Shown: positions 3,564 through 40,703 of the stretch, in pieces
Layout of the letters: each line of letters opens with the position of its first letter
Numbering within the stretch: the stretch's first letter is position 1
Assembly: GCA_016207465.1 (NCBI GenBank)
Contig: JACQPP010000090.1
Coordinates: 1-51,828 of the forward strand
Direction of reading: 5' to 3'
DNA from: Methanobacteriota archaeon
GTDB lineage: Archaea; Halobacteriota; Syntropharchaeia; JACQPP01
DNA length: 51,828 bases
Notes under the pieces: model-generated
The model's database searches: none
Seen by the model: only the letters and a program-made list of their open reading frames with translations
Told to the model about the DNA's origin: nothing
Made by a program: the position numbers and the translations under genes

Positions 3564-3608
3564 CTCTGAACCCTTATATCCCGCGCCCCTCATCTAATCG
3601 TCGCCGCC

Positions 3609-4718: not shown

Positions 4719-4921
4719 CCCCCCGACACCACCCGTAGCACCCGCACCTCTCCCTCCTCCACCTTCTCGTCCCCGGGGACCGGGTTCTCCCCGCGGAACA
4801 CCACGACGGTCTCGGGGTTGAATCCGAGTTTCTCCATGGCCTGGTCGTAGGTGGTCCCCTCGGGGAGTTCGAGGGTCTGTTCGCCCTGGGGGAATAGTTT
4901 CACGTGGATTTGCACCATCAT
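4715..4921 (-). CDS. MoaD/ThiS-family ubiquitin-like small modifier (SAMP-like) ending in Gly-Gly
   Basis: 68-aa ORF ending ...VRVLRVVSGG-stop. Length and pattern (LELPEGTTY..A...LG, C-terminal diglycine) fit a beta-grasp protein. It lies 13 nt downstream of the acyl-CoA synthetase gene. Confidence 0.72.
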   Translation of the reverse strand: MMVQIHVKLFPQGEQTLELPEGTTYDQAMEKLGFNPETVVVFRGENPVPGDEKVEEGEVRVLRVVSGG

Positions 4922-9838: not shown

Positions 9839-9969
9839 CCCTCCTCGTCTGCACGGACTGCAAGCGCACCTTCCCGCGGGGACAGAGCCAGACCCGGATG
9901 GGGGGCCACCTCTGCCCCGAGTGCCTGGAGAAACTCTACCGAAAACTGCAGGGGCCCCCGCCGGGGTAG
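9835..9969 (+). CDS. Small zinc-ribbon protein (44 aa), not listed as its own ORF in the track
   Basis: MTLLVCTDCKRTFPRGQSQTRMGGHLCPECLEKLYRKLQGPPPG has CxxC...CxxC. Its ATG overlaps the upstream stop (ATGA at 9835-9838). GC3 is very high. Confidence 0.55.
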   Translation: MTLLVCTDCKRTFPRGQSQTRMGGHLCPECLEKLYRKLQGPPPG

Positions 9970-9982
9970 CCGGCGAAGGGGG

Positions 9983-12028
9983 TCAAATTCTCTCGGCCAC
10001 CAGTTCCGCGATGTCCTTCGGTGTGAGTTTCTCGTTGAGGTTGGTGGTCTTGGCGCCGTCCTCCATCATGGAGAGGCAGTAGGGGCAGGCGCTGGCGAGG
10101 ATTTTTGCCCCTGTTTCGGCGGCCTCCTGGACGCGGTTCTGGTTGATGCGTGTCCCCAGCCGCTCCTCCATGAGGAAGCGGGCGCCCCCGGCGCCGCAGC
10201 AGAACCCCTTCTCGCGGCTGCGTTTCATCTCCTCCAGTTGGAAGCCGAGGCTCTTGAGGATGTCCCGCTGGGGCTCGTAGATTTGGTTGTAGCGGCCGAG
10301 GTAGCAGGAGTCATGGTAGGTGGCGGTGGTCTTGCCCTGTCCGTCGGCCTTGAGTTTGAGGCGGCCCTTCTGGAGGAGCTCGGCGATGTATTCGGTGTGG
10401 TGGATGACGCGGGCGTTGAAGCCGAATTGGGGGTATTCGTTCTTGAAGGTGTTGAAGCAGTGGGGGCAGGCGGTGACCACGGTGTGGACCTTGTAGCGAT
10501 TGAGGGTCTCGGCGTTGGCCTTGATGAGGGTCTGGCCGAGGAACTCGTTGCCCATGCGGCGGGCGGGGTCGCCGTTGCACTTCTCCTCGGTGCCGAGGAT
10601 GGCGAAGTTGACCCCGGCGGCCCGGAAGATTTTGACGAGGCTGCGGGCGACGGCCTTGTTGCGCTCGTCGAAGGAGGCGGCGCATCCCACCCAGTAGAGG
10701 ACCTCCAGTTGGGTGGCGTCGCCGCGCTCCTTGAGGAGGGGGACCTGGAGGCCCTCGGTCCAGTCGGCCCGCTTCTCGTTGTTGAAGGCCCAGGGGTTCT
10801 GGTTGACCTCGAGGTTGCGGAGGGCCCCTTGGGCCTCGGCGGGCATCTTGCCCTCCATCATGACGAGGTGGCGGCGCATCTCGATGATTTTGCCCATCTG
10901 GTCAATGAAGACGGGGCACTCTTCCACGCAGGCAAGGCATGTGGTGCAGGACCAGAGTTCGTCCTCGGTGATATACTCGGGGCCGATGAGCGCGGGGCGG
11001 GTCCCGGTGCCCCCGGCGAGGATGTCGCGGCTGCTGGCGGTGAGGTTCTCGCGGACGTCCACCACGATTTTCTTGGGGCTGAGGGGCTTGCCGGTCCCGG
11101 CGGCTGGACATACCGATTCGCAGCGGCCGCAGTGGGTGCACCCGTAGGAGTCGAGGATGTCCTTCCAGGTGAGGTCCTCCACCCGGCTGGCCCCGTAGCG
11201 GTCGTTCTCTCCCATGACGGTGAAGTCCATGGGGCGGAGCCTGCCCCGGGGCTCGAGGCTGCGGAAGAAGACGTTGGGGAGGGCGGTGACCACGTGGAAG
11301 TGTTTGGAGAAGGGGAGGTAGGCGAGGAATCCGAAGAGGGCGAGGAGGTGGCCCCACCAGGCCGCTTCGTTGACGGTGCCGGTGAGTTCTGGGCTCCAGC
11401 CCGCGCGGCCGATTTGTCCGGCGAGGACGCGGCTGACGGGGGTCCAGGCGGCCGAGGCGGGGAACTCCTGGCGGAGGATGTGGATGGCGGTGACGAGGGC
11501 GAGGGTGGTGACGATGGTGAGGATGAGGGTGAGGACAATCATGCCGTCCGCGAAGGAGCCCTTGAGTTTCTTGGGGCGGATGACCACGCGGCGGAACATG
11601 GCCATGGCGATGCCGAGGAAGACGAAGGCGATGAAGAGGTCCACGAAGAGGGCGAGGGGCTCGATGAGGCGGCTGGGGGTGTCGCCCGCGGCGAGGGGCA
11701 ACTGGAAGTCGGGGCCCACGAGGCCCTCGCCGACGAACTGGACGACGGTGGCGAAGAGGACGAGGAAGCCGAAGAAGATGAAGGCGTGGAGGACCCCCCC
11801 GTACCACTCCTTGAACATGCGCTTCTGGAGGAACCCGTAGACGATGAGGCTCCGGATGCGCTCGGGGACGTCCACCACCCAGGGGAAGAGGTGGAGGTTG
11901 AAGATGGGGGTGGGCTTGGCCCGCCACATGAGGCGGAGGAGGTGGGCCATCCGGATGCCGAAGACACTGAGGCTGACCGCAAGGATGGCGGCCACCAGCA
12001 GGGCGCGGATGGGGGCTTCGAGGGCCAT
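9983..12028 (-). CDS. Membrane-anchored FeS oxidoreductase, HdrD/GlpC-like with an N-terminal multi-TM (cytochrome-b-like) domain; ETF:quinone oxidoreductase-type partner of EtfAB
   Basis: 681-aa ORF. It has about 5-6 N-terminal TM helices, two ferredoxin motifs (CTHCGRCESVCP, CTTCLACVEECP) and two CCG-type Cys-rich domains (CPHC..., CCGAGG). It sits directly upstream of etfA/etfB on the same strand. Confidence 0.85.
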   Translation of the reverse strand: MALEAPIRALLVAAILAVSLSVFGIRMAHLLRLMWRAKPTPIFNLHLFPWVVDVPERIRSLIVYGFLQKRMFKEWYGGVLHAFIFFGFLVLFATVVQFVGEGLVGPDFQLPLAAGDTPSRLIEPLALFVDLFIAFVFLGIAMAMFRRVVIRPKKLKGSFADGMIVLTLILTIVTTLALVTAIHILRQEFPASAAWTPVSRVLAGQIGRAGWSPELTGTVNEAAWWGHLLALFGFLAYLPFSKHFHVVTALPNVFFRSLEPRGRLRPMDFTVMGENDRYGASRVEDLTWKDILDSYGCTHCGRCESVCPAAGTGKPLSPKKIVVDVRENLTASSRDILAGGTGTRPALIGPEYITEDELWSCTTCLACVEECPVFIDQMGKIIEMRRHLVMMEGKMPAEAQGALRNLEVNQNPWAFNNEKRADWTEGLQVPLLKERGDATQLEVLYWVGCAASFDERNKAVARSLVKIFRAAGVNFAILGTEEKCNGDPARRMGNEFLGQTLIKANAETLNRYKVHTVVTACPHCFNTFKNEYPQFGFNARVIHHTEYIAELLQKGRLKLKADGQGKTTATYHDSCYLGRYNQIYEPQRDILKSLGFQLEEMKRSREKGFCCGAGGARFLMEERLGTRINQNRVQEAAETGAKILASACPYCLSMMEDGAKTTNLNEKLTPKDIAELVAERI

Positions 12029-12031
12029 CGG

Positions 12032-13015
12032 TTATCCCTTGGCCTTCAGCTTCCTGGCCTCTTCGGTGAGGGCGGGGACAATCTGGAAGAGGTCCCCCAC
12101 GATGCCGTAGTCGGCCACCTTGAAGATGGGGGCGTTGGGGTCCTTGTTGATGGCCACGATGCACTTGCTGCTGCTCATCCCGGCGAGGTGCTGGATGGCC
12201 CCGGAGATGCCGCTGGCGATGTAGATGTTGGGGCTCACGGTCTTGCCGGTCTGTCCCACCTGGAAGGAGTGGGGCTTCCATCCCGCGTCCACGACGGCCC
12301 GGCTGGCCCCCACGGCGGCCCCGAGTTCGGCGGCGAGGTCGTGGATGATTTTGAAGTTGGCGGGGTCCTTCATCCCGCGGCCCCCGGAGCAGATGATGCT
12401 GGCCTCGGTGAGTTCGATGGCGCCCCCGGTGGCGGTCTTGGCGGTCTCCTTCACGATGGTCTTGAGGGCATTGTCGTCCACCTGCACCGGGACCTTGACG
12501 GTCTCGGGGGCGGCCCCCGGGTTGGCCGGGGGGACGGGGACGGCGTTGGGGCGGAGGGTGGCCATCTGGATGGGGGTGGTGAAGGTGACCGTGGTGCGGG
12601 CCTTGCCGGCGTAGACGGGGCGGAGGGCGACGAGTTTGCCGTCCTTCCACTGGAGGTCGGTGCAGTCGGTGGCGAGTCCGGCGCCGGTGCGGGCGGCGAC
12701 GCGGGGGAGTAGGTCCTTGCCGTAGGAGGTGGCCCCGGCGAGCACGGCCCCCGGCTTGTGCTGGGCCACCAGGCCGGAGACGATGGCCGCGTAGGCCTCG
12801 GCCCCGTAGTTCTTGAGGCGCGGGTCGTCCGCGACAAACACCCTCTGGGCCCCATGGGCCCCCAGGGTCTTCGCCAGCCCCTCGGGTCCGATGAGGACCG
12901 CCCCGGTCTTGCCCCCGGCGGCCCCCGCGAGTTCCCGGGCCTTGCCGAGGCACTCCAGGGTGGTCCGCTTGACCGCTCCATCGCGGACCTCGGCGACCAC
13001 CCAGATGTCGCTCAT
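12032..13015 (-). CDS. etfA: Electron transfer flavoprotein alpha subunit
   Basis: 327-aa ORF with the C-terminal FAD-binding region ...SGGRGM...[11 protein letters not shown]....[27 protein letters not shown]. Confidence 0.92.
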
Positions 13016-13806
13016 ATCTGGAGGAGTTTCGCCTCCTCCCGGAGGAGGGTGAGGAGTTTCTGGGCGGCCTCCTGGGGGGTCTCGTATTCGATGAGCTTTC
13101 CGGCCTTGCGCGGCGGGGGGAGGGCCATCTCCGCCACCTGGGTGCGGGGGGCGGTCTCCTCGGGCTTGAGCCCCAGGTCCTTGAGGGCCTGTGCCTTGAG
13201 GGGCTTGGACTTGGCCTTCATGATGTTCGGCAGCGTCGGGTAGCGGGGCTCGTGGATGCCGTTGAGGCCCTTCTGGACGGAGAGCACGGCGGGCAGCGGG
13301 ATTTCCAGGTTCTCCTCGGCCCCCTCAATCTGGCGGGAGACCTTGGCCGACTTCTTGTCCGCGGCCACCTCGAGTTTGGTGGCGATGCCCACCGAGGGGA
13401 CCCCCAGGAACTCGCCGAGGGCGGGGCCCACCTGGCCGCTGTCGTCGTCAATGGCCTGCTTGCCCACCAGCACCAGGTCGCGGGGCAGCCCCTGGATGGC
13501 CTTGGCGAGGATGCGGGCGACGGTGATGGCGTCCACGTCAAGGTCCTCCTTGATGTGGACCGCGCTGTCGGCCCCCATGGCGAGGGCCGTGCGGAGGGTC
13601 TCCTCCACTCGCTGGGGACCCATGGAGACCACGGTCACGGTGCCCCCCATCTTCTCCTTCATGCGGAGGGCGGCCTCGATGGCGAGCTCGTCGTAGGGGC
13701 TGATGACCCACTTGACCCCCTCCGGGTCCAAGGCGGGCCTCTGGGGGTGGACCTTCACCTTGGTCTCGGTGTCCGGGACCTGCTTGATGCAGACGACCGT
13801 GTTCAT
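13012..13806 (-). CDS. etfB: Electron transfer flavoprotein beta subunit
   Basis: 264-aa ORF starting MNTVVCIKQVPDTETKV, with ISPYDELAIEAALR. Its stop overlaps the etfA start (13012-13015). Confidence 0.92.
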   Translation of the reverse strand: MNTVVCIKQVPDTETKVKVHPQRPALDPEGVKWVISPYDELAIEAALRMKEKMGGTVTVVSMGPQRVEETLRTALAMGADSAVHIKEDLDVDAITVARILAKAIQGLPRDLVLVGKQAIDDDSGQVGPALGEFLGVPSVGIATKLEVAADKKSAKVSRQIEGAEENLEIPLPAVLSVQKGLNGIHEPRYPTLPNIMKAKSKPLKAQALKDLGLKPEETAPRTQVAEMALPPPRKAGKLIEYETPQEAAQKLLTLLREEAKLLQI

Positions 13807-13831
13807 CCCGGCGGAGAGTCTTGAAAAAGTC

Positions 13832-13839
13832 TATTTAAA
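13832..13839 (-). promoter_or_regulatory. TATA-like box (plus strand TATTTAAA) for etfB
   Basis: It is centred about 30 nt upstream of the ATG at 13806. Confidence 0.5.
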
Positions 13840-13985
13840 CGTTTCCTAACCCTGGGGAAAGGGACTCCGCGGCGCTCCGTTTTCGACGTGGCTCACGTAG
13901 CTCTACGTAACTACTTCTCTCCCCGGCAGGTCAGGATTCTCTCCACCTGTTCCTTCAACCCCGGCAACTCCCCCTGTGTGCTCTT

Positions 13986-14261
13986 CTACACCGCCTCCAG
14001 GTTCACCCCGAAGTATTCGTGGATGAGGCGGTTACGGATGTCCATCCAGTCCCTCCAGGGGACTCCCGGGTGCTTGGCGCGGAACCCCCGGGAGACCTGA
14101 CGGGCGGCCTCCCCGATGATTCCCATCTGGCGGACGACGGCATCTTGGACCAGGGGGGTCTCCAGGAAGGTGTTCTTGTCGACGCCCTGGAGGTAGGTTT
14201 CTATGCGGGCGATGGAGTCGAGGATGTGCTTCAGGTAGACCTCATCCGACCGTTGCTTCAT
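13986..14261 (-). CDS. HEPN-domain (DUF86) toxin of an MNT-HEPN pair
   Basis: Internal Met of ORF 13986..14561: MKQRSDEVYLKHILDSIARIETYL...VQDAVVRQMGIIGEAA...RNRLIHEYFGV (Rx4-6H motif). It overlaps the upstream MNT gene by 20 nt. Confidence 0.82.
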   Translation of the reverse strand: MKQRSDEVYLKHILDSIARIETYLQGVDKNTFLETPLVQDAVVRQMGIIGEAARQVSRGFRAKHPGVPWRDWMDIRNRLIHEYFGVNLEAV

Positions 14262-14553
14262 AGACCACGACCTTCTGCTTCTCGACAATGGGGCGGAGGT
14301 GGGGGTTGAGGGCCTCCTCGGTGACGATTTCGACCCGGCGGCCCAGGGATTTCGAGAGTTCCCGTTCCAGCCGGACGAGTTCGAGGAGGCTTTTGGGTTC
14401 CCGGAAGCGCACCAGTAGGTCGAGGTCGCTCTTGGGGGTGGCTTCGCCTCGGGCGGTGGAGCCGAAGATGGAGATGCGGAGGGCTCCGTGGGGCCGGAGA
14501 AGGGTCCCGAGGCTCTTGCGGAGTTCTCCGATGTCGTTGGGTCTGCGGGCCAT
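14242..14553 (-). CDS. Minimal nucleotidyltransferase (MNT) antitoxin
   Basis: 103-aa ORF with the pol-beta-type motif IFGSTARGEATPKSDLDLLV. Confidence 0.85.
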   Translation of the reverse strand: MARRPNDIGELRKSLGTLLRPHGALRISIFGSTARGEATPKSDLDLLVRFREPKSLLELVRLERELSKSLGRRVEIVTEEALNPHLRPIVEKQKVVVYEATVG

Positions 14554-19033: not shown

Positions 19034-20041
19034 TCAGGCCCAGCCGTTTTCCAGGTACCACTGGTAGGCGATGCGGAGCCCGATTTTGGTGTCGGGGTAG
19101 AGGAGCTGGAATCCGAGTTTTTTGAGTTTCTGGTTGCTGAACCAGAAGTTGCCGTCCATGTATTCGATGGTGTTGGGCTCGATGGGGGGCCGGGCCCCGA
19201 TTTTGCGGCCCCGCTTGTCGAGGCGCCGGGCGAGGCGGTTCATGAACCGCACCATGAACCGGTGGGAGAGGTTCACCTTGTAGATGCGGCCCCCGGCGAA
19301 CTGGGCGGCGTCCAGGAGGAGGTCGTAGATGGTGTAGAGGGCGTCGTCCACCACGTTGTAGGGCTCCCCGATGGCCTCCGGCTTCCGGGAGAGGAAGCGG
19401 GCGGCGCGGGCCACGTCGGTGACGTAGACCGCGGGGGCCCGGTGGTTGCGGAGGTTGTAGGCGACGAAGGGGAGCTGGCCCTTCATGACGATGTTGCCCA
19501 CGGTGGCCATGCCGTAGCGGCTCCAGGGGCCGTACATGGGGGCGGGGCGGATGACCGTGAGGGGGAACCCCTGCTCCCGGTGGAGTTTCCAGGCATACTG
19601 CTCCTGGAGCCACTTGGTCTTGTTGTAGGGGTTGACGGGGTCCTTGGGGTGGTCCTCGGTGACCGGGACGGTCTTGGGGAGGCCGTAGACCCCCTCGGTG
19701 GACCAGTGGATGAAGCGCTTCACGCCGCTGTCCATGGCCGCCTCGCAGAGGTTCTGCATGCCCCCCACGTTGACCCGGTGGAGCTGCTCGTAGGTGGCGG
19801 AGTAGTCGAAGAGGCTGGCGGGGTGGAAGACAATCTCCACGTCCTCGACGAGAGGCCGGAGGCTCTTCTTGTCGAGGAGGTCGGCGGGGATGAACTCGGC
19901 CCCGAGTTCCTTCACGTGGGCCGGGTCGGAGGTGGGCAGGTCGGTGGCCCGCACGGGGAGCCCCTCCCCGCGGAGGAGTTCCACCAGGTTCTGCCCGACG
20001 AATCCGCAGGCTCCGGTGACGAGGACCCTGGGTGTGGCCAT
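19034..20041 (-). CDS. NAD-dependent epimerase/dehydratase (extended SDR)
   Basis: 335-aa ORF starting MATPRVLVTGACGFVGQNLV (TGxxGxxG), with a downstream YNKTK (YxxxK). Confidence 0.82.
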   Translation of the reverse strand: MATPRVLVTGACGFVGQNLVELLRGEGLPVRATDLPTSDPAHVKELGAEFIPADLLDKKSLRPLVEDVEIVFHPASLFDYSATYEQLHRVNVGGMQNLCEAAMDSGVKRFIHWSTEGVYGLPKTVPVTEDHPKDPVNPYNKTKWLQEQYAWKLHREQGFPLTVIRPAPMYGPWSRYGMATVGNIVMKGQLPFVAYNLRNHRAPAVYVTDVARAARFLSRKPEAIGEPYNVVDDALYTIYDLLLDAAQFAGGRIYKVNLSHRFMVRFMNRLARRLDKRGRKIGARPPIEPNTIEYMDGNFWFSNQKLKKLGFQLLYPDTKIGLRIAYQWYLENGWA

Positions 20042-20065
20042 CGGGAGGGGGATGGCCCCCGGGGC

Positions 20066-20072
20066 TTTAAAT
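20066..20072 (-). promoter_or_regulatory. TATA-like box TTTAAAT for the epimerase gene
   Basis: It is centred about 28 nt upstream of the ATG at 20041. Confidence 0.45.
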
Positions 20073-20110
20073 CCTTCCGCCCCAAATCCCTCTTCTTTCT
20101 TTTTCTGCGG

Positions 20111-20127
20111 AAAAATAAAGAAAAAAA
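20111..20127 (-). terminator. Oligo-T tracts (T7 and T5 on the minus strand) just after the AOR stop
   Basis: The minus strand reads TGA-AGAAG-TTTTTTT-CTTTA-TTTTT, which is the archaeal intrinsic terminator type. Confidence 0.55.
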
Positions 20128-20132
20128 CTTCT

Positions 20133-22019
20133 TCAGGCGGTCGCCTTTCCGTCCCACAAATCGCGGGCCACCTTCTCCATGCCGAGCTGGAGGAGTTTCT
20201 CCCGGGTGGGCTTGCCGGTGGCGGGGTCCCACTTGCGCCACTCGTAGAATTCCTTGAGCTGGAGTTCGAGGTTGGGGAGCTGGCCCGCCACAGTGGTGGT
20301 GCCGTCGGGGTTCTTGGTCTTCTTCGCGGTCCCCCCGCTCGGGAGGGGGGTCATGACAATCTTGGGGAGGGTGTCGTCCCGGGCGGTGAGGCCCGCGCGG
20401 ATGTTGTAGGCGCGCTTCAGGTTGTTGATGCGCTCCCCGGTGAGTTTGAGGTCGGGGATGGTGTGGGGGACGCCGGTCCCGGCGGTGAGGAGGTCGGCAA
20501 TTTGCTGGACGCTGGGCTTGGCGAACTGGCAGAGGACGATGGTGTTGTAGACGGCCATGTAGTCCTGGGCGCGGGCGGTGAGGATGCCCTTGCCCGGGTC
20601 GAGGAAGCGGTTCATGGGCTTCATCTCCCACTCCGGGACGCCGGTCCCGAGCTCGACCTCGAAGGGGCTGCCGTAGAGGTGGCAGGCCCCCCGGCTGCTG
20701 GTGGCGTATTCGCTGGCCATGCTGAAGAAGGCCCGGGCGTCGTGCATGGGAATCTCCATGCCCTTCACGTGGGCGGCCCACTCGGGGTGGCCGTAGTGCT
20801 TGCCCATGTGGCGGACCCCCTCGGCGAGGATGCCGCCCAGGCCCCGGCGGTGGGCCATGAGGTCGAGGAGGTAGGGGATGGCGTGGGGGTCCCCCCAGGG
20901 GAGCTCGCGGCCCGCCTGCTCCCGGGTGATGAGCCCCTTCTCGTAGAGGTAGAGGGAGAAGGCCACGACGACCCCGGCGCTGATGGTGTCCATGCCGTAG
21001 CGGTTGCAGAGCCAGTTGGCGTGGGCGACGGCCTCCAGGTTGTCGTTGGCGCAGAGGGGCCCGAAGGTGGCCGCCGTCTCATATTCGGGTCCGGCGGTCT
21101 CCCCGCCGGGGATGGCGAAGGGCCCCGACTCCACCTCCACCACCCGGGCGCAGCGGATGGGGCAGGAGTGGCAGGCCTCGTTGTGGGCGAGGATGGTCTC
21201 CTTCATGGCGGCCCCGCTCACCTTCTTGGCCCCCGCGAACTTGCCCTCGGTGAAATACTTGATGGAGACGTCGCCGAACATCTCGGCCATCTCCATGTAG
21301 CCGTCGGTCCCCAGCTCCTGGAAGATTTTGAAGGTCGGGGCCTTCTTCATGTGGGCATAGGAGGCCTTGCAGAGCTCCATGAACCGGGCCCGGTCGGACA
21401 CGGGGACCCGGGTCTGGACCTTGCGGCAGGTGATGGCCTTGAGCCTCTTGGAGCCCATGACCGCCCCCGGTCCACCGCGGGCCGCGGCTCGCCCGTCCTC
21501 GCTGATGATGGCCGACACCTTCACCAGGTTCTCCCCGGCGGGGCCGATGCAGCAGGTGCGCAGGTCCAGGTCCTTGTTGTTCAGGACCTCCTGGGTCTGG
21601 TAGGTGTCCTTCCCCACCAGGTCCTCGGCGCTGTGGAACTCCACCGTGTCCCCGGCGATGGTGAGCCGCGTCCACCGGGGGGCGCGGCCCCGGATGGCGA
21701 GGGCGTCCCACCCGGAGAAGCGGAGCCATGAGCCCCAGTCCCCCCCGGCGTTGGCCTCCCCCCAACAGCCGGTGAGGGGCGACTTGAAGCAGACCACATG
21801 GCGCCCCGTGTCCGGGGCCCCGCTGGCAGTGAGGGGACCAGGCATGAAGAGGAGGGTATTGTCGGGGGAGAGCGGGTCCACCCCGTAGTTGCCCCAGTCG
21901 TAGAGCAGTTTGGCCCCCAGCCCCGAGCCCCCGATGTAGGCCCGGGCGTCGGCCGGGTCAATCTCCTGCGACTTGAAGGTCTGCTTCCCCAGGTCCACCA
22001 CCAGGAGCTTCTTCAACAT
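20133..22019 (-). CDS. aor: Aldehyde:ferredoxin oxidoreductase (tungsto/molybdopterin AOR family)
   Basis: ORF 20133..22421 trimmed to MLKKLLVVDLGKQTF (ATG 22019, 628 aa). It has GGSGLGAKLLYD, CIGPAGENLV, EACHSCPIRCAR (cluster Cys) and GMDTISAG. Confidence 0.9.
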   Translation of the reverse strand: MLKKLLVVDLGKQTFKSQEIDPADARAYIGGSGLGAKLLYDWGNYGVDPLSPDNTLLFMPGPLTASGAPDTGRHVVCFKSPLTGCWGEANAGGDWGSWLRFSGWDALAIRGRAPRWTRLTIAGDTVEFHSAEDLVGKDTYQTQEVLNNKDLDLRTCCIGPAGENLVKVSAIISEDGRAAARGGPGAVMGSKRLKAITCRKVQTRVPVSDRARFMELCKASYAHMKKAPTFKIFQELGTDGYMEMAEMFGDVSIKYFTEGKFAGAKKVSGAAMKETILAHNEACHSCPIRCARVVEVESGPFAIPGGETAGPEYETAATFGPLCANDNLEAVAHANWLCNRYGMDTISAGVVVAFSLYLYEKGLITREQAGRELPWGDPHAIPYLLDLMAHRRGLGGILAEGVRHMGKHYGHPEWAAHVKGMEIPMHDARAFFSMASEYATSSRGACHLYGSPFEVELGTGVPEWEMKPMNRFLDPGKGILTARAQDYMAVYNTIVLCQFAKPSVQQIADLLTAGTGVPHTIPDLKLTGERINNLKRAYNIRAGLTARDDTLPKIVMTPLPSGGTAKKTKNPDGTTTVAGQLPNLELQLKEFYEWRKWDPATGKPTREKLLQLGMEKVARDLWDGKATA

Positions 22020-22074
22020 GGACACCCAGCGGGTTCCCCGGGAACTACATAACCGTTTCGCCTCCGGGAAAAAC

Positions 22075-22083
22075 CATAAATAG
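22075..22083 (+). promoter_or_regulatory. TATA-like box CATAAATAG
   Basis: It is centred 26 nt upstream of the ATG at 22105, which implies a leaderless transcript. Confidence 0.5.
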
Positions 22084-22104
22084 GCCCCCGCCATCTCTTG
22101 CGCG

Positions 22105-22689
22105 ATGACCGACGCCCGGCTCTCCGAGGTTCCCCCGGGGGTTCTCGCCATCCTCCAGTTCGTGCGGGAGGGGGCCCGCAAGCGGGGCCAGGTCATCAAG
22201 CGGCTGGGCCTCCCCCCGGAGCAGGCCGAGCCCTGGCTCAAGGAGGCCGCGGCCGCCGGATACCTCGCCGAGGAGAAGGGCCGGCTGGTCCTCACCCCGA
22301 AGGGGCTCGCCGAGGTCCTTGCCCTCGAGCAGAGGCGCCCCATCGTCATGCCCCCGCACCGCTGGAAGCACGAGATGTGGCTCGACAAGGCCGCCGGGGG
22401 CGTCCTCATGGCCGTCGGCATCTCCCTGGTCTACACCGGCTTCACCCTCGGCCTCCAGATATTCAACACCCCCGCCCCCCAGTTCGAGGCCCCCAACCTG
22501 AACATCGGCTCCCTCCTCGGGAGAGGCGGCGGGGAGGGAGGCGACCTGGGCTCGGCCGTCTTCGGCCCCATGCAGCAGATGTTCTCCTCCAGCATCCTCA
22601 CCGCATTCAAGGCCGCCGGGGCCGGCATCATCGTCAGCGCCGGGGGGGTCCTCCTCAGCCGCGGGGTCCAGCTGTTCAAGAGGCCGTAG
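22105..22689 (+). CDS. Hypothetical protein: N-terminal winged-helix plus C-terminal membrane/Gly-rich segment
   Basis: 194-aa ORF. LAILQFVREGARKRGQVIKRLGL...GYLAEEKGRLVLTPKG looks like a wHTH, followed by hydrophobic stretches (GGVLMAVGISLVYTGF, AGAGIIVSAGGVLL). Confidence 0.55.
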   Translation: MTDARLSEVPPGVLAILQFVREGARKRGQVIKRLGLPPEQAEPWLKEAAAAGYLAEEKGRLVLTPKGLAEVLALEQRRPIVMPPHRWKHEMWLDKAAGGVLMAVGISLVYTGFTLGLQIFNTPAPQFEAPNLNIGSLLGRGGGEGGDLGSAVFGPMQQMFSSSILTAFKAAGAGIIVSAGGVLLSRGVQLFKRP

Positions 22690-22692
22690 AAC

Positions 22693-23139
22693 ATGGGCCG
22701 GTTCTTCGAGGAGTTCCGCATGGGGGAGGTCCTCCACACCGGGGGGCGCACCGTCACCGAGACCGACATCGTCCTCTTCTCCACCCAGACCGGGGCCCAC
22801 AACCCCATGTTCCTCAACGAGGAGTACGCCAAGAAGACCCCGTTCGGGGGCCGCATCGCCCCGGGGATGCTCACCCTCTCCATCTCCACCGCCCTCACCT
22901 ACCAGACCGGGGTCCTCGAGGGGACCCTCATCGCCCTCCAGAGCCTCGACTCCATCCGCTTCCCCGCCCCGGTGCGCCCCGGGGACACCCTCGCCATGGA
23001 CCTCGAGGTGGTCGGGCTCGAGGACGACGCGGCGAAGAAGCGCGGCCTCGTGAAGATGCGGGGAACCGCCCGGAACCAGAAGGGCGAGGCGGTCCTCGAG
23101 GCCCAGTGGAACTTCCTCATGCGCAGGAAGGCAACATGA
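22693..23139 (+). CDS. MaoC-like (R)-specific enoyl-CoA hydratase / hot-dog fold dehydratase
   Basis: 148-aa ORF with FSTQTGAHNPMFLNEEYAKKTPFGGRIAPGML and FPAPVRPGDTL. Confidence 0.85.
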   Translation: MGRFFEEFRMGEVLHTGGRTVTETDIVLFSTQTGAHNPMFLNEEYAKKTPFGGRIAPGMLTLSISTALTYQTGVLEGTLIALQSLDSIRFPAPVRPGDTLAMDLEVVGLEDDAAKKRGLVKMRGTARNQKGEAVLEAQWNFLMRRKAT

Positions 23140-23891
23140 GCCTCCGGCGGGCCAAGAAGGGGGAGTCCCCCGGGCGGGTGCTGGTCTCCGGGTTCCCCAA
23201 TATGCGGAACGTCTCCAAGCTGGCCGCCGAGGGGTTCATCCACGGCCTCGACGCCCGGGTGCTCCGCGAGGTCCCCTCCGAGAGCCTCGCCGGCATCCCC
23301 CCCCGGATTTCGGTCCAGGAGGGCATCGCCTCCCTCGCGGGGTTCCGCCTCTACACGGCCCGCGCCCCCCGCGGGGAGGGGGACCCCCTGGAGGTCATCG
23401 TGGCCACCGGGGAGACCCAGCCCCCCAACGCCCTCGGCTACGTGGCCCTCGCCCGGGAAATCCTCGGCCACGCCCGCGACCTCGGCGTCCAGGAGATATA
23501 CACCGTGGGCTCCCTCGGCGTCCCCTGGGACCGGCCCCAGCGGCAGGTGGTCGCCGTCTCCGGGAGCCCCGACCTCAAGAGGCGCCTCCAGGAGGCCGGG
23601 GTGGCTCCGGGGGCCGACGGGGGCCCCATCAGCGGCATCGAGGCCATCCTCCCCGCCTACGCCCACCTCGAGGAGGTCCCCGCGGCCCTGGTGCTGGTGG
23701 AGACCCACTGGGACGAGTCCACCTACGCCTCCCCCGACCCCCGCGCGGCCATCGCCGGAGTCCAGGCCATCTCGAAATTCCTGGGCGTCACCGTCCCCAC
23801 CCGCTGGCTCGAGGAACTCCAGCCCCGGGAGGCCCCCCCGGCCGAGGAGAGCCTCCGGCCGGGAAAAGAAGAACCCGGGGGATACGGATAA
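23136..23891 (+). CDS. PAC2-family (proteasome assembly chaperone-like) protein
   Basis: In-frame Met of ORF 22098..23891: MSLRRAKKGESPGRVLVSGFPNMRNVSKLAAEGFIHGL... The ATG overlaps the MaoC stop (ATGA). This family call is from memory only. Confidence 0.55.
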   Translation: MSLRRAKKGESPGRVLVSGFPNMRNVSKLAAEGFIHGLDARVLREVPSESLAGIPPRISVQEGIASLAGFRLYTARAPRGEGDPLEVIVATGETQPPNALGYVALAREILGHARDLGVQEIYTVGSLGVPWDRPQRQVVAVSGSPDLKRRLQEAGVAPGADGGPISGIEAILPAYAHLEEVPAALVLVETHWDESTYASPDPRAAIAGVQAISKFLGVTVPTRWLEELQPREAPPAEESLRPGKEEPGGYG

Positions 23892-23918
23892 CCCCTTTTT
23901 CTTTCGCGGGACCCCGTT

Positions 23919-24713
23919 CTACTTCTCGGCCTTCAGGCACTCCATCTCGCGCTCCAGCAGGGAGAGCTCCTTCGCCTCCAGGCTCCGGGGGTCCACGGAG
24001 AGGATGAGGCGGGCGTTGCTGTGGGCCACAATCTCCCGGAGCCCGTAGAGGAACTTGAGGGTCCCCGGGAACCCCTTGGTCTGGACGAGGTATTCGAGGG
24101 CGTTGATGAGCACCACCCCCTCGCTGCGCTCGCGGAGGAACTTGGCGATGAGGAAGGAGAGCTCCTCCAGGTCCTCCACCGCCTGGAACTCCCGGGAGGG
24201 GGGCTGCTGGCCAATCCACACGATGGGGGTCTTGTGGAGCCGGTGGGTGTCGCGGATTCGCTTCGGGGGCGAGCGGGTGAAGCAGAGCCCCGGGGCCCCA
24301 TGGGTCACCAGGTCGGCGAACATCTCCAGGGCGGCCTCGGGGCGCTCCTCCCGCACCAGGTAGCAGAGCCCCCGCTCCAGGGAGACACCGGGCTGGCCCT
24401 CCCGGGGGGCCTCCGCCTCCGAGAGCAGGAGGAACCGGTACTTCACCGCCCCGATGGGGGCCATGTCGAACCTCGCCCCCGCCTGCTCCAAGACCGCCTC
24501 TATGTCCTTCTGGAACCGCTTGAACTGGCGGGCCTTCAGCTCCGCCCGGTAGACCACCAGAAAATAGGTCTCCCTCCGGCCCTCCAGGGTGAACTCCCCC
24601 CTCCCGAAGGTGAGGGGGGTCGGCCCCTTCTCATGGACCTTCAGGACCCGCTCCACCGTCTGCACCGAGGCCTCATCGTAGGCGATGACCAGGAATCCGA
24701 GACCGGCAACCAT
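23919..24713 (-). CDS. Soluble DUF835-domain protein
   Basis: 264-aa ORF. The C-terminal ~150 aa (GLCFTRSPPKRIRDTHRLHKTPIVWIGQQ...GVVLINALEYLV...ARLILSVDPRSLEAKELSLLEREM) align by eye with the C-terminal domains of 28151..29350 and 29417..30655. Confidence 0.75.
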   Translation of the reverse strand: MVAGLGFLVIAYDEASVQTVERVLKVHEKGPTPLTFGRGEFTLEGRRETYFLVVYRAELKARQFKRFQKDIEAVLEQAGARFDMAPIGAVKYRFLLLSEAEAPREGQPGVSLERGLCYLVREERPEAALEMFADLVTHGAPGLCFTRSPPKRIRDTHRLHKTPIVWIGQQPPSREFQAVEDLEELSFLIAKFLRERSEGVVLINALEYLVQTKGFPGTLKFLYGLREIVAHSNARLILSVDPRSLEAKELSLLEREMECLKAEK

Positions 24714-24752
24714 GACGCTGGGGCTCCAGACAGGGAGAGGGGGGCCCCGGCG

Positions 24753-24762
24753 AAATATTTAT
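24753..24762. promoter_or_regulatory. Palindromic TATA-like box AAATATTTAT in a divergent intergenic region
   Basis: It is centred about 32 nt upstream of the ATG at 24790 (+) and about 45 nt upstream of the ATG at 24713 (-). Confidence 0.45.
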
Positions 24763-24789
24763 CCATCACCCCCCTCCCCAGTTCTACCC

Positions 24790-24894
24790 ATGCTCTTCGG
24801 CAAGAAGAAAAACAAGGAGCAGTACAAGTGCGCCTGCGGCTTCGTGTCCGACAAGCCGGGGACCCACTGCGGCCAGCTCCTCCAGAAGGCCTGA
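24790..24894 (+). CDS. Small Cys/His-containing protein (34 aa), unannotated sORF
   Basis: MLFGKKKNKEQYKCACGFVSDKPGTHCGQLLQKA. 33 of 34 codons end in G/C, matching the host coding bias. A TATA-like box lies at the leaderless distance. Confidence 0.5.
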   Translation: MLFGKKKNKEQYKCACGFVSDKPGTHCGQLLQKA

Positions 24895-31773: not shown

Positions 31774-31992
31774 ATGGGCGTTCCGGCCACCGTGCGGCGC
31801 TGGGGCTCCTCCCTGGCGGTGACCCTGCCAAAGGAGTTGGTGAGGTCCCTCTCCCTGAGGGAAGGGGAGAAAATCCACATCGAGGTGAAGAAGGAGAACC
31901 CTCTGCGCGAGGTCTTCGGGAAGGGGAAACTGGACAAGCCAATCGACAAGGTGATGCGGGAGATTGATTCCGAGTTGTGGGGCGGGCTGTGA
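31774..31992 (+). CDS. vapB: AbrB/SpoVT-type antitoxin (VapB-like)
   Basis: 72-aa ORF. VRRWGSSLAVTLPKELVRSLSLREGEKIHIEV is a swapped-hairpin motif. Confidence 0.8.
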   Translation: MGVPATVRRWGSSLAVTLPKELVRSLSLREGEKIHIEVKKENPLREVFGKGKLDKPIDKVMREIDSELWGGL

Positions 31993-32342
31993 CGACCTAC
32001 CTCTTTGACACCTACGCCTTCCTGAAACTCTACGAGGGCGCCCGCAGTTATGAGAGGTACTTGCGGGAGGACTTCGTGACCACCGCTCTCCAAATCATCG
32101 AGTTGCACTACAAGCTCCGGAAGATGGCAGACCCGGATGCCGATGCGGTCGTCTCCAAATTTTGCCGCCTGGAGGAAATCACTTGCGAGGACGTGGTGGA
32201 AGGGATGAAGGTGAAGGAGAAGATGCCGGAGCTCTCCCCCGCCGACGCCATCGGCTACGCGGTGGCCCGGAGACTGGGCATCCCATTCCTCACGGGGGAC
32301 GGGCCCATGAGAAAACTGCCGGGCGTGGAGTTCGTGCGGTAG
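31989..32342 (+). CDS. vapC: PIN-domain ribonuclease toxin (VapC-like)
   Basis: It starts VTTYLFDTYAFL at a GTG overlapping the vapB stop (GTGA), and has late acidic residues (PADAIGYAVARRLGIPFLTGD). Confidence 0.75.
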   Translation: MTTYLFDTYAFLKLYEGARSYERYLREDFVTTALQIIELHYKLRKMADPDADAVVSKFCRLEEITCEDVVEGMKVKEKMPELSPADAIGYAVARRLGIPFLTGDGPMRKLPGVEFVR

Positions 32343-34461: not shown

Positions 34462-34477
34462 GGCCGGATGGGCCTCA
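34457..34477 (+). terminator. 8-bp hairpin GTGAGGCC-GGATG-GGCCTCAC spanning the VIT1 stop codon
   Basis: Read directly from the sequence. No clear T-tract follows, so a terminator role is tentative. Confidence 0.3.
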
Positions 34478-34535
34478 CATCTCCCCCCGGAACTCCCGGG
34501 TCCAGCACCCCCGGCGGCGGTCCCGGACTGGAGGC
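34475..34535 (-). repeat. Direct repeat L: decayed copy of an hsdS 3-prime end (frameshifted, 20-nt deletion)
   Basis: It aligns with 36428..36507. Identical blocks are CTCCCCCCGGAAC (13 nt) and TCCAGCACCCCCGGC (15 nt), then 18/20 after a 20-nt gap. Minus-strand translation gives ..LQSGTAA..PGVLD..FRGEM-stop in shifted frames. Confidence 0.8.
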
Positions 34536-34693: not shown

Positions 34694-35482
34694 ATGAGCG
34701 ACAACAGCAAAATCGAGTGGACTGAGGCCACCTGGAACCCGGTCACCGGTTGCACTAAAATCAGCCCGGGCTGCAAATACTGCTACGCCGAGCGCATGGC
34801 CCGCCGCCTCCAGGCCATGGGCCAGCACCGATACCGCAACGGCTTCCGGGTCACCCTCCAAGAAGACCTCGTTGACCTCCCCCGCAAGTGGAAGGAGGGG
34901 CGCCGCATCTTCGTCAACAGCATGAGCGACCTCTTTCACGCCGAGGTCCCATTCGACTTCATCCAAAGATGTTTCGACACCATGCGAGAGGCCGACCAGC
35001 ACACCTACCAGGTACTCACCAAGCGCCCCGAGAGGATGCTTGAGTTCGCCCTAGAGGCCCTGGAGGGACCCTGGCCTCCCCAGGTCTGGGCCGGGACCAG
35101 CGTGGAGAACGCGGATTACAAGTGGCGCATTGATATGCTGCGGGGGGTTCCAGCCTCTACCCGATTCCTCTCTATCGAGCCCCTCATCGGCCCCATGGGC
35201 AACCTCGACCTTGAGGGAATCCACTGGGTCATCGTCGGAGGAGAATCCGGGCCCCAGGCGCGGCCCATGGAGGCCGAGTGGGCCCGCGAGGTCCGGGACC
35301 AATGCCACGAGGCGGGGGTCGCGTTCTTCTTCAAACAGTGGGGGGGAACGAGAAAAAAACTCACAGGCCGCATTCTAGACGGAAGGACATGGGATGAATA
35401 CCCCTTATCTCTGCCGAAAAATAGGCTAACAAGTAGTGAAACGTCATTCTCCAACTCAATCCGCTTAGCAACACAAGTTTAA
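34694..35482 (+). CDS. DUF5131 (phage Gp37/Gp68 family) three-Cys-motif protein
   Basis: 262-aa ORF with N-terminus [31 protein letters not shown] (C20-x6-C27-x2-C30), then [27 protein letters not shown] and FFFKQWGG. Confidence 0.85.
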
Positions 35483-35499
35483 AGTGGGTTTATGTGCCT

Positions 35500-36426
35500 A
35501 TGGAAGTCTCCTATCACACACGAGTGAAACATAAGCTACTCGGTGACTATCTGAGTATCTGGGAAACGGCAATAAAGGGAAAGATACCGTTGCTTCAATT
35601 TGTTGACCTCTTTGCCGGTGATGGCATATGCAAACTTGAGAGTAGCCTTTCAATTACGTGGGATGGCTCAGCCATTTTGGGAGCAAGGATAGTAGGGGGT
35701 GTACCTGGCTGGAAGTGTATCCTGAATAGTTGGGACCCAAATGACCGGACTATATGCGACAGGCTAAAACACACTCTTGGAGAGACGAAGCCAAACATCC
35801 AAATTTTGAGCGAGGATGCAAATTTGTTGGTTGGCAAGATACTATCCTCGGCCTTCATCAACCCCAATTACCCGTCAATTTTTTTCTTAGACCCTACAGC
35901 ACACTCCCAACTCCCGTGGTCCACAATCGAAAAAATCGGAAACCATCGAGGGAAAATTAATAGAAACGATACCAGGTTAAGCCGACGTCCAGAGCTCATA
36001 GTGACGCTTATGACTGTCGGGATGCAAAGGAACCCGCAAGACCTTCCAGGCATATCGCGCGCGCTGGGCGTGACCGAAGAATGGTTGGAAACCTGGATTG
36101 AGTTTTGGAAGGAGTTACCAGAGAATCAAGGTGAACCCATCAACAAATCATTTCTCGATTTGTTTACTCTGAAACTCGAACGCCTCTATGGGCACAAACC
36201 ACTAACCATGAGTGTTCATAATCGAATGAAAAGCATCGTGTATTGGATTGTCTTCGCGTCAAGCCACAAGAGGGGAGTCGAGATTTATGGGCGCCTTATT
36301 CCCTGCGTGGAAAAGTACCATGAGGTAGAGTGGTGGAAGGAAGTGGGGGAATTGAAGATTTTAGAGATGAAGGAGAAGATGCGGCAAAAGGGACAACAAT
36401 TTCTTGATGAGAGGTTTTCCCGCTAA
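35500..36426 (+). CDS. tcmP: Three-Cys-motif partner protein TcmP-like (Rossmann/SAM-MTase-like motifs)
   Basis: ORF 35494..36426, with ATG at 35500. It has SYHTRVKHKLLGDYL, FVDLFAGDG and IFFLDPTAH. It is about 45% GC by hand count. The family call is from memory of the TIGR04474 description. Confidence 0.7.
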   Translation: MEVSYHTRVKHKLLGDYLSIWETAIKGKIPLLQFVDLFAGDGICKLESSLSITWDGSAILGARIVGGVPGWKCILNSWDPNDRTICDRLKHTLGETKPNIQILSEDANLLVGKILSSAFINPNYPSIFFLDPTAHSQLPWSTIEKIGNHRGKINRNDTRLSRRPELIVTLMTVGMQRNPQDLPGISRALGVTEEWLETWIEFWKELPENQGEPINKSFLDLFTLKLERLYGHKPLTMSVHNRMKSIVYWIVFASSHKRGVEIYGRLIPCVEKYHEVEWWKEVGELKILEMKEKMRQKGQQFLDERFSR

Positions 36427-36427
36427 T

Positions 36428-36507
36428 TCACAACTCCCCCCGGAACGCCCTATCCAGCACCCCCGGCAGCATCGCGTCGAGCCCGGCGGCGGTCTCGGAC
36501 TGGAGAC
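36428..36507 (-). repeat. Direct repeat R: intact-frame copy of the hsdS 3-prime end
   Basis: It encodes ..LQSETAAGLDAMLPGVLDRAFRGEL-stop. It is the partner of 34475..34535. Confidence 0.8.
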
Positions 36508-36589
36508 GGCGGAGGGAGTCCACCTTGGATTGGAGGGTGTAGAGTTTTTTGTCAACGTATCTGCGGCAGGTGTCGGCTTCGGTGTTCAT
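36428..36589 (-). pseudogene. 53-codon remnant ORF: HsdR-like N-terminus fused in frame to an HsdS C-terminal conserved region (type I R-M deletion scar)
   Basis: MNTEADTCRRYVDKKLY resembles the (S/T)E(A/S)DTcR..i.P.L start of type I/III restriction R subunits. TLQSKVDSLRRLQSETAAGLDAMLPGVLDRAFRGEL resembles the HsdS C-terminal ...LLPsiLdkAFkGEL ending. Confidence 0.5.
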
Positions 36590-40226: not shown

Positions 40227-40703
40227 TTGATTCATGGATTATGGAGTGTGCCCTATACGGAACACTCCCACAGGTTCGCCGTTACCATCTTGGCCCACCA
40301 CTATCCGGAGGCGAAGAAGGAAATCGAAGCCGTAGTGGTGGACCCCCATACCCCTCTCGGCCGAGGACACCAGCCGACCCCCTCCAAAGTGCTCCAAGCC
40401 CGATTCCGCAGCCTGGGATGGAGGACAGAGAAGACAGTCGGAGAATCAAGCCTCCGATTCGATGCCCTTAAAGGTCGGGTTGCCATTGAAATCGAGTTAA
40501 CAGACCCCGCGGATGTCCTGAATACACTTCTCAAGTTCCAGATTGCGAATTCCGGGAATCAAATTGACGTGGGTCTGCTCGTGGTCTACGACGATTCCAT
40601 CAGGGGGACGAACATCCCGAAAATCGGAAAAGCAAAAAGTGACCTTCGCCTGTTCTCGAACTTGGTGTTCTGCCCTGTCTGGGTTATTGGCTTGAAAGAG
40701 TAA
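40227..40703 (+). CDS. BglII/BstYI-fold (PD-(D/E)xK) restriction-endonuclease-like protein, orphan
   Basis: 158-aa ORF. ...RFRSLGWRTEK...LRFDALKGRVAIEIELTDPADVLNTLLKFQIANSGNQIDVGLLVVYD matches the remembered BglII core pattern (D..K...vEvq.....v..dl.Kf......idvGv.I). No methyltransferase gene is nearby. Confidence 0.55.
   Translation: MIHGLWSVPYTEHSHRFAVTILAHHYPEAKKEIEAVVVDPHTPLGRGHQPTPSKVLQARFRSLGWRTEKTVGESSLRFDALKGRVAIEIELTDPADVLNTLLKFQIANSGNQIDVGLLVVYDDSIRGTNIPKIGKAKSDLRLFSNLVFCPVWVIGLKE

Follow-up and report, generated by a model that had tools for sequence, protein, structure and literature searches.

According to one study, the only radical S-adenosylmethionine (SAM) enzymes linked to DNA so far were spore photoproduct lyase (SPL), which acts in repair, and gp53 of phage M6, which acts in hypermodification (PMC8989533). 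The latter is an SPL-like radical-SAM isomerase that installs a post-replicative DNA base modification, a thymidine hypermodification (PMC8989533). Here we analyze a two-gene cassette from a Methanobacteriota archaeon, located on contig JACQPP010000090.1 of assembly GCA_016207465.1 (51,828 nt; the whole stretch is referred to below as the window). The first gene encodes a protein of the DUF5131 (Gp37/Gp68) family of the radical-SAM superfamily, and the second encodes TcmP, the three-Cys-motif partner protein, with a class I SAM-methyltransferase fold. From sequence comparison, predicted structures, and analogy with the above enzymes, we propose with moderate confidence that TcmP and DUF5131 act as a complex in a DNA-directed modification module.

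Among the described systems, SPL is the best structural match to the DUF5131 protein, belongs to the same megacluster, and acts on DNA; in addition, some partners of TcmP in other genomes are SPL-like (PF20903). It differs from the window protein in the cysteine motif (CX3CX2C in SPL, CX6CX2C here) and in length (~340 aa versus 262 aa). To our knowledge, SPL works without a methyltransferase-like partner. M6 gp53 has no TcmP partner either, and its 5-hydroxymethyldeoxyuridine (5-hmdU) pathway involves a kinase, an amino-acid transferase, and a pyridoxal phosphate (PLP) decarboxylase, none of which is present here. On the methyltransferase side, RlmJ (DUF519), RsmD, and Trm1 share with TcmP the class I fold, motif I of the D-x-F-x-G-x-G type, a D-A-N-like motif III, D-P at the motif IV position, and an N-terminal helix with a conserved Lys, but in these enzymes D-P is followed by P-Y/F, whereas in TcmP it is followed by Y/F-G or, in the window protein, by T-A-H.

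Several mobile or defence-associated systems also resemble the cassette in part. The Radical SAM mobile pair A/B is likewise a mobile, bioinformatically defined two-gene set; however, it consists of two radical-SAM proteins and lacks a methyltransferase-fold member. The window DUF5131 protein partially matches protein A of this pair (TIGR04471, E 2.5e-23, 82.7 bits, far under the equivalog cutoff of 355), and other TcmP partners weakly match protein B (TIGR04470). The viperins and Ophion (OpnABC) place a radical-SAM enzyme in a defence-island setting, but belong to other radical-SAM clades and have other partners. Viperins make chain-terminator nucleotides. Ophion, whose partners are PHP and phosphoribosyltransferase (PRTase), was considered as the same system and rejected as unrelated. 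Finally, classical restriction-modification (R-M) systems differ from the cassette, which contains no cognate nuclease and is flanked by dead hsdS and hsdR fragments; scans with family models detected no nuclease domain in the two genes.

The first-pass annotation of the window regarded the pair as an undescribed system, which cannot be maintained, since both genes are named by the NCBI pipeline PGAP and the pair is listed in PADLOC-DB v2 as candidates PDC-M41 and PDC-M30. The DUF5131 protein matches the B components of both candidates strongly (PDC-M41B, E 2.6e-116; PDC-M30B, E 6.8e-111), and TcmP matches the A components weakly (PDC-M41A, E 2.9e-8; PDC-M30A, E 4.6e-5), as judged by E-value and not by PADLOC's per-model thresholds. 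The TIGR04474 family itself was defined through adjacency to a three-Cys-motif gene. The window pair is thus a divergent archaeal member of a catalogued, functionally uncharacterised kind.

The DUF5131 radical-SAM protein

The product of the first gene (262 aa) gives a full-length match to PF07505, with 345.9 bits where the gathering cutoff is 28.9 (E 1.6e-103; residues 4-237 align to model positions 1-243), and also matches phrog_2045, in agreement with the family and the C-x6-C-x2-C hallmark originally assigned to it. The hallmark occupies residues 20-30 and is documented for DUF5131, a curated radical-SAM subgroup (SFLD; Megacluster-5-2 of RadicalSAM.org) with the CX6CX2C variant of the cluster motif, whose neighbours in Megacluster-5 are the 'MJ0683-like' (5-1) and 'spore photoproduct lyase' (5-3) subgroups (PMC9477430).

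Its homologues are highly conserved (the 120 matches listed are 63-79% identical). Multiple alignment of 48 of them revealed 72 invariant columns, including C20, C27, and C30, which are the presumed ligands of a SAM-binding [4Fe-4S] cluster. Further invariant stretches are NSMSD, LTKR, S-x-EP, GGESGP (G182-P187), and FFFKQWGG. The GGESG segment lies at the end of a late strand of the barrel and probably corresponds to the SAM-contacting motif of the GxIxGxxE type of radical-SAM enzymes. The C-terminal ~25 residues are unconserved and were modelled with low confidence.

A sequence search of this protein against the PDB gave nothing meaningful. The AlphaFold2 (AF2) model, with a predicted local distance difference test (pLDDT) score of 81 and a predicted template-modelling (pTM) score of 0.81, contains a partial (beta/alpha) barrel core like that of solved radical-SAM enzymes, with modest E-values of which the best is 1.1e-3. 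The closest PDB structure is SPL (4fhg, E 1.1e-3, prob 1.00, query-normalised template-modelling score, TMq, 0.51). The top four matches are all SPL structures (4fhg, 4fhf, 4rh0, and 4k9r; prob 0.98-1.00, TMq 0.42-0.51), and BlsE, MiaB, and other TIM-barrel or radical-SAM structures rank below them. Since the SPL family models (TIGR04070 and PF20903) do not match the window protein, it is considered SPL-like in fold and not an SPL. Both the curated subgroup and the predicted fold agree with the earlier suggestion of an Fe-S, radical-SAM-like site; binding of a [4Fe-4S] cluster and reductive cleavage of SAM are predicted.

The TcmP methyltransferase-fold protein

The second gene was identified as tcmP by TIGR04474 (E 8.2e-30, 104.6 bits, NCBIfam cutoff 53; residues 8-266 align to positions 2-256 of 263), as anticipated from its sequence. 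The Pfam scan, in a database without a TcmP model, gave no match. Its AF2 model is confident (pLDDT 90, pTM 0.88). A Foldseek search of the PDB with this model gave 31 matches at E <= 1e-3, and every one of them is a class I SAM-dependent methyltransferase, which is in line with the proposed SAM-methyltransferase likeness of the protein. The best match is 2oo3 of DUF519, which we take to be the RlmJ family (E 4.2e-6, target-normalised template-modelling score, TMt, 0.56), followed by catechol O-methyltransferases, METTL13, Trm1, MnmM, and TYW4. The viral structure library yielded generic methyltransferases and nothing else. PDB searches with the TcmP sequence and with the TcmP profile gave nothing meaningful, with no methyltransferase found in the profile search. 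Comparison of the TcmP profile with E. coli RlmJ by hhalign gave a probability of 1.3% and aligned motif I alone; therefore, we claim a fold resemblance to RlmJ and not homology. Matches to the RsmD family (PF03602) are weak, with E 0.01 in three of 25 TcmP relatives.

A full HMMER scan with TcmP collected 2524 representative clusters at E <= 1e-3. The window protein belongs to a small archaeal subfamily, with 56 representatives at E <= 1e-30 and with 43-46% identity to the closest relative. Among 151 representatives of the family, the Asp of motif I (D36) is Asp or Glu in 149 and G42 is Gly in 147, the motif III-like D106-A-N108 is common, and the Asp-Pro at the motif IV position is practically invariant (D131 in 151, P132 in 150). 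K10 of the N-terminal helix is retained in 145 representatives, and Y17, R162/R163, E/D165, and R177 are strongly conserved. Asp-Pro is usually followed by Tyr or Phe and Gly (DP[YF]G), whereas the window protein has Thr-Ala-His. Thus, a motif IV of the DPPY type, as initially suggested for this protein, is correct in position, resembling the RlmJ/RsmD/Trm1 type, but not in sequence. Taken with the predicted structure, the conserved motif I and Asp-Pro support the methyltransferase likeness of TcmP, which is a putative SAM binder.

Longer relatives of TcmP carry an additional C-terminal winged-helix domain (PF22560). This domain was rejected for the window protein, the profile alignment placing it beyond the shared region.

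Pairing of TcmP with radical-SAM proteins of one clade

The genome-collection matches of this TcmP subfamily are all archaeal and come from Methanoperedens, Methanoregula, Methanoculleus, Methanocellaceae, Thermoplasmata, Altiarchaeota, Woesearchaeota, and Nanoarchaeota. We analyzed 25 archaeal or metagenomic loci encoding TcmPs of the window subfamily, and in every one of them a radical-SAM gene directly adjoins tcmP. The adjacency of TcmP and its radical-SAM partner, expected from the first reading of the window, is thus obligatory in this sample, and it extends to phages and plasmids. All four possible gene arrangements were observed (radical SAM upstream of TcmP, TcmP upstream of radical SAM, divergent, and convergent), which argues that the adjacency is kept by function and not by operon structure.

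The partner is DUF5131 proper, with CX6CX2C, in eight loci plus the window. In other loci it is replaced by an SPL-like protein (PF20903, CX3CX2C; five loci), an Rv2578c/PA0069-like protein (CX3CX3C; six loci), or a small protein with CX3CX2C (five loci); one outlier (L019) has CX3CX2C and a weak match to DUF5131. Some of these partners match the SPL models directly (PF20903, TIGR04070). Common to all four types are the three cysteines, LTK (K110), S/R-x-E/D-P (P163), and G182, and by these shared residues the four types are members of one SPL/DUF5131 clade.

A classical sign of joint action, natural gene fusion, was found in one archaeal metagenome-assembled genome (MAG), where a 670-aa protein (L012 in Table 1) combines a Zn-ribbon, TcmP (181.7 bits), a GMT-like PF22560 winged helix-turn-helix (wHTH) domain, and a radical-SAM domain. 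Immediately upstream of the fusion gene there is another tcmP, which stands alone (4026-4907). The two components diverge at different rates. Across nine paired DUF5131 loci, the median identity is 63% for DUF5131 versus 38% for TcmP, and in all 36 pairwise comparisons the identity is higher for DUF5131, a pattern suggestive of a conserved catalytic engine combined with a diversifying recognition subunit.

One Methanocellaceae MAG (CAVYKK01) contains two TcmP/radical-SAM loci with the small CX3CX2C partner (L027 and L029); in L027 the tcmP gene is apparently split into two open reading frames (ORFs), 9878-10198 and 10272-10946.

Organization and origin of the window cassette

Table 1. Coordinates of the cassette, its motifs and flanks in the window, and of related loci elsewhere
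Feature	Replicon	Position	Strand	Basis or description
VapB-like (MazE_antitoxin) and VapC (PIN) pair, overlapping	window	31774..32342	+	between endonuclease IV and UbiA
Left flank repeat, degraded hsdS 3' end	window	34476..34535	-	direct repeats D1/D2, alignment
DUF5131 (Gp37/Gp68) radical-SAM-superfamily gene, 262 aa	window	34694..35482	+	PF07505, PADLOC, phrog_2045, AF2 model
CX6CX2C motif, C20/C27/C30	window	34751..34783	+	translation, residues 20-30
GGESG segment	window	35237..35251	+	translation
TcmP gene, class I SAM-methyltransferase fold	window	35494..36426	+	TIGR04474, AF2, Foldseek
Motif I DLFAGDG, presumed SAM-binding loop	window	35605..35625	+	translation
FFLDPTAH stretch	window	35881..35904	+	translation
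Asp131-Pro132 at motif IV position, within FFLDPTAH	window	35890..35895	+	translation
Right flank repeat, 3' end of 53-aa ORF	window	36428..36507	-	direct-repeat alignment
53-aa remnant ORF	window	36428..36589	-	type I S subunit C-terminal conserved region and short N-terminal piece
BglII-family endonuclease ORF, 158 aa	window	40227..40703	+	PF09195, E 2.1e-11
TcmP/radical-SAM fusion (L012), 670 aa	archaeon MAG JAPDKB010000011.1	4891-6903		Zn-ribbon, TcmP, PF22560 wHTH, radical SAM
TcmP and SPL-like pair (L001)	Thermoplasmatales MAG	10001-14283		transposase, MazE-like gene, methylase, endonuclease
DUF5131, 415-aa TcmP-like, convergent 308-aa TcmP, 845-aa ORF (L037)	S. meliloti pSymA	19221-24882		
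Immunity repressor, TcmP, convergent DUF5131 (L033)	Gordonia phage Bosnia	3354-5826		
Immunity repressor, TcmP, convergent DUF5131 (L031)	Gordonia phage Fairfaxidum	3992-6284		
Solo DUF5131, early/replication region (L032)	Mycobacterium prophage prophiT36-2a	2305-4906		TcmP absent

The two genes lie on the same strand. The tcmP gene encodes 310 aa if translation begins at the GTG (35494) and 308 aa if it begins at the ATG (35500); the latter is the likely start, and the database copy of the protein (P0001) begins there. The intergenic gap is 17 nt to this ATG, the spacing reported at the outset, and 11 nt to the GTG. Such a gap suggests co-transcription of the two genes, which is more likely than separate expression. 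Archaeal TATA boxes are situated ~26 nt upstream of the transcription start. The candidate for a separate TATA box of the second gene, GTTTAAAG (35477-35484), overlaps the stop codon of the first gene and stands 16-23 nt ahead of the ATG at 35500, so that a transcript driven by it could not contain this codon, and the TATA-like promoter previously attributed to tcmP was rejected on these grounds of geometry.

The GC content at third codon positions (GC3) is 0.757 in the DUF5131 gene and 0.531 in tcmP, against 0.91-0.94 in the flanking host genes (VIT1, DNA ligase, and Nfo), and the windowed GC content drops to 0.52-0.58 between 35 and 37 kb. Judged by this composition, the cassette is foreign and horizontally acquired. 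The difference in GC3 between its two genes hints at different donors or at joining by partner swapping, and it fits the partner shuffling seen elsewhere as four interchangeable radical-SAM types.

An imperfect direct repeat of ~60-80 nt flanks the cassette on both sides, and its 24-nt core occurs in the window only at 34510 and 36482 (0 occurrences expected by chance). The right copy coincides with the 3' end of a 53-aa minus-strand ORF. Residues 13-53 of this ORF match plasmid genes annotated as 'restriction endonuclease subunit S' (E 1e-5 and 2e-5), and residues 1-12 presumably derive from an HsdR-like N-terminus; a Pfam scan of the ORF gave no match. The left copy differs from the right one by a 20-nt deletion and a 1-nt indel and is hence a pseudogene fragment. 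The type I R-M debris noticed in the first-pass annotation can thus be specified as hsdS remnants that flank the pair directly, and they suggest that the cassette formerly lay within a now decayed type I R-M locus or entered it by recombination. There is no support for insertion by an integrative element, as neither a tRNA gene nor an integrase marking the cassette was found in the window and the flanking repeats are hsdS fragments.

The remaining genes around the cassette are housekeeping ones (endonuclease IV, UbiA, VIT1, and ATP-dependent DNA ligase). Of the toxin-antitoxin modules said to lie nearby, the overlapping VapB/VapC pair listed in Table 1 was recovered; its GC3 (~0.85) is slightly under that of the host genes. 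A BglII-family endonuclease ORF sits in a second low-GC patch (GC 0.53, GC3 0.635). No methyltransferase was found near it among the few ORFs scanned, which comprise a 71-aa ORF and a downstream ORF resembling an NAD-dependent epimerase, and the endonuclease ORF may be an orphan or a remnant.

Neighbourhoods in archaea, plasmids, and phages

To describe the company of the pair in archaea, we counted the families of the nearest three ORFs on each side in 24 loci (112 ORFs; a descriptive count and not an enrichment test). The majority of these ORFs are housekeeping. The commonest families are ResIII (five) and DDE transposases (four, plus three DUF772), followed by Eco57I/N6_Mtase/MmeI methylases (three), type I S subunits (three), HsdR (two), and type IIG enzymes (two). 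The link to type I R-M systems observed in the window recurs: HsdS and HsdM adjoin the pair in L017, and HsdR with a DUF1828/1829 protein accompanies it in L023 and L028. In the Thermoplasmatales MAG, the TcmP and SPL-like genes have an IS4-type transposase on one side and a MazE-like gene, an N4/N6 methylase, and an MvaI/BcnI-family endonuclease on the other; this locus is a compact mobile defence islet.

DUF5131 was found in 438 plasmid records and 181 phage records (Mycobacterium, Gordonia, Burkholderia, Natrialba, and others), and PGAP annotates the same DUF5131/TcmP pair on plasmids. In Nocardioides pNOCA01, the neighbours of the pair are McrC, an AAA ATPase, and a large N6-methylase; in P. 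aeruginosa pP9Me1, it directly follows a site-specific integrase and has the same gene order as in the window; and in R. phaseoli pRphaN771a, it is located beside an Eco57I-type methylase and a GIY-YIG nuclease. On S. meliloti pSymA, SMa2245 (hna) and SMa2243 (TcmP) form one putative transcription unit and are both induced ~2-fold; hna is a validated defence gene (PMC12445080). Following the published gene order, we infer that the 845-aa ORF of this cluster is hna. The cluster contains two TcmP paralogues, one of which is apparently co-transcribed with hna.

In the temperate Gordonia phages Bosnia and Fairfaxidum, tcmP is located immediately downstream of the immunity repressor gene on the same strand, convergent with DUF5131 and with an integrase nearby. 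The phage tcmP genes are labelled merely 'methyltransferase' or 'hypothetical protein'. The defence genes of the CarolAnn prophage occupy the same lysogenically expressed, repressor-linked slot (PMC6426606). Genes 43/44 of CarolAnn were rejected as the same system, being RexAB-like and unrelated, and serve as a precedent for the slot only. The Mycobacterium prophage prophiT36-2a carries a solo DUF5131 gene, mislabelled 'RNA methyltransferase', just behind the genes for a C5-cytosine DNA methylase and a small DNA-binding protein. DUF5131 may have a TcmP-independent role in phage DNA metabolism.

Proposed function and alternative explanations

In the proposed DNA-directed modification module, TcmP would bind SAM and select the target site on nucleic acid, most likely DNA, holding a flipped-out base in a pocket around the invariant Asp-Pro; it may also methylate this base. 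DUF5131, docked on TcmP, would cleave SAM at its CX6CX2C-bound [4Fe-4S] cluster to the 5'-deoxyadenosyl radical, which would then abstract a hydrogen from the presented base, so that a covalent change is made or processed. By analogy with SPL and M6 gp53, the reaction would involve pyrimidine C5-methyl/C6 chemistry; DNA as the substrate and pyrimidine chemistry are favoured because both enzymes handle pyrimidine C5-methylene/C6 radicals in DNA (PMC8989533). Within this reading, a protective or epigenetic mark and direct damage to invader DNA appear about equally probable. The module moves on plasmids, prophages, and defence islands, and its biological role is most probably in genetic conflict, that is, exclusion of or defence against invading DNA, and not in housekeeping.

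A quite unlikely arrangement is R-M-like immunity with radical chemistry as the 'restriction' arm. In that case, TcmP would read both the sequence and its methylation state, and the radical-SAM enzyme would introduce lesions or crosslinks into unmarked invading DNA, running SPL chemistry towards damage in place of cutting. On this reading, the solo DUF5131 genes in early regions of phages would serve as counter-measures, by which the lesion is reversed or pre-empted.

A number of observations weigh against DNA modification by the pair. No nuclease or other effector through which a modification could stop a virus is consistently linked to it. The characterised nearest structural relatives of TcmP are RNA or small-molecule methyltransferases and not DNA methyltransferases, and the Foldseek E-values are modest, with TM scores of ~0.5. 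Position 77 in motif II, acidic in 126 of the 151 TcmP representatives, is Ser in the window protein, which also ends before the wHTH domain of the longer relatives. By tblastn, TcmP accompanies DUF5131 in about 8-10 of the 181 phage records, although divergent TcmPs were possibly missed, and from this scarcity DUF5131 seems able to work without TcmP or with another partner. Three archaeal loci (L003, L004, and L015) lie amid housekeeping genes, and the R-M company of the other loci is a descriptive finding. The PADLOC candidates (PDCs) are 'guilt-by-embedding' predictions and explicitly unvalidated, as recent surveys state for most of them, and full-text literature searches found no functional study of DUF5131, TcmP, or PDC-M41/M30, so the initial statement that no biochemical function had been demonstrated for the pair still holds.

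Modification of RNA in place of DNA, with TcmP recognising a nucleotide of tRNA or rRNA for its radical-SAM partner to modify, so that translation of the host or the invader is altered, by analogy with RlmN/Cfr, MiaB, and TYW1, is an unlikely explanation. It would account for the RNA methyltransferases among the best fold matches of TcmP (2oo3, Trm1, MnmM, TYW4, TrmB, and BCDIN3D) and for the weak RsmD-family matches in three subfamily members. An actinophage annotation 'RNA methyltransferase' points the same way, but the label is carried by the DUF5131 gene itself and is apparently an artefact of annotation. Every radical-SAM partner falls in the SPL/DUF5131/COG1533-like clade, in which the characterised enzymes act on DNA, and the winged-helix domain in longer TcmPs and the recurrence of the pair next to DNA R-M genes likewise favour DNA. 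DNA repair by direct, SPL-like reversal of a pyrimidine lesion, which TcmP would recognise and flip out, is distinctly improbable as well. SPL is indeed the closest solved structure, some partners match its family models, and the genes on either side of the window cassette include endonuclease IV and DNA ligase. However, these neighbours are coincidental, because the cassette is foreign in composition and has hsdS remnants at its flanks. Besides, the family is patchy and mobile, occurring on plasmids, in prophages, and in the vicinity of R-M systems; the divergence of TcmP, much faster than that of its partner, is not usual in a repair factor; and the slot behind the phage immunity repressor fits exclusion better.

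Radical-SAM antiviral precedents, the viperins and Ophion, together with the many small-molecule O-methyltransferases, such as catechol O-methyltransferase (COMT), among the fold matches of TcmP, would be consistent with a producer of a small molecule, in which the radical-SAM enzyme, in the manner of viperin, acts on a nucleotide or metabolite in place of nucleic acid and turns it into an antiviral or signalling compound, and TcmP methylates or regulates it. We regard this as very unlikely, since DUF5131 is outside the viperin clade and structurally nearest to a DNA-binding lyase, the relatives of TcmP contain wHTH and Zn-ribbon fusions, and the rapid divergence of TcmP fits macromolecule recognition. 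Most improbable is that both window ORFs are non-functional remains of a type I R-M or defence locus in decay. The hsdS and hsdR fragments at the flanks are clearly dead, and the Ser in motif II of the window TcmP could be read as decay; however, both ORFs are full length (98-100% coverage against homologues), D36, G42, D131, and P132 of TcmP are intact, and both protein models fold with high confidence. The residues invariant in the DUF5131 alignment are also present in the window protein, although by construction.

Significance

Compared with the literature searched, several features of the system are new. TcmP is its constant element, and the radical-SAM component is interchangeable among four types of the SPL clade. 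The natural fusion, the repressor-linked position in Gordonia phages, and the hsdS-remnant frame of the window cassette are likewise new. DUF5131 and its relatives form a large clade present on hundreds of plasmids and phages, and TcmP has ~2500 representative clusters; members of its family accompany validated defence genes and, in temperate phages, are found in the slot used for lysogenic defence. The constant partner, the natural fusion, and the occurrence of the pair in tractable Gordonia phages and on a Pseudomonas plasmid offer experimental handles. Solving the chemistry of the pair would probably reveal either a novel modification of bases in DNA (or RNA) or a novel means of disabling invader DNA, and would give a function to genes that the NCBI pipeline annotates without a known one.

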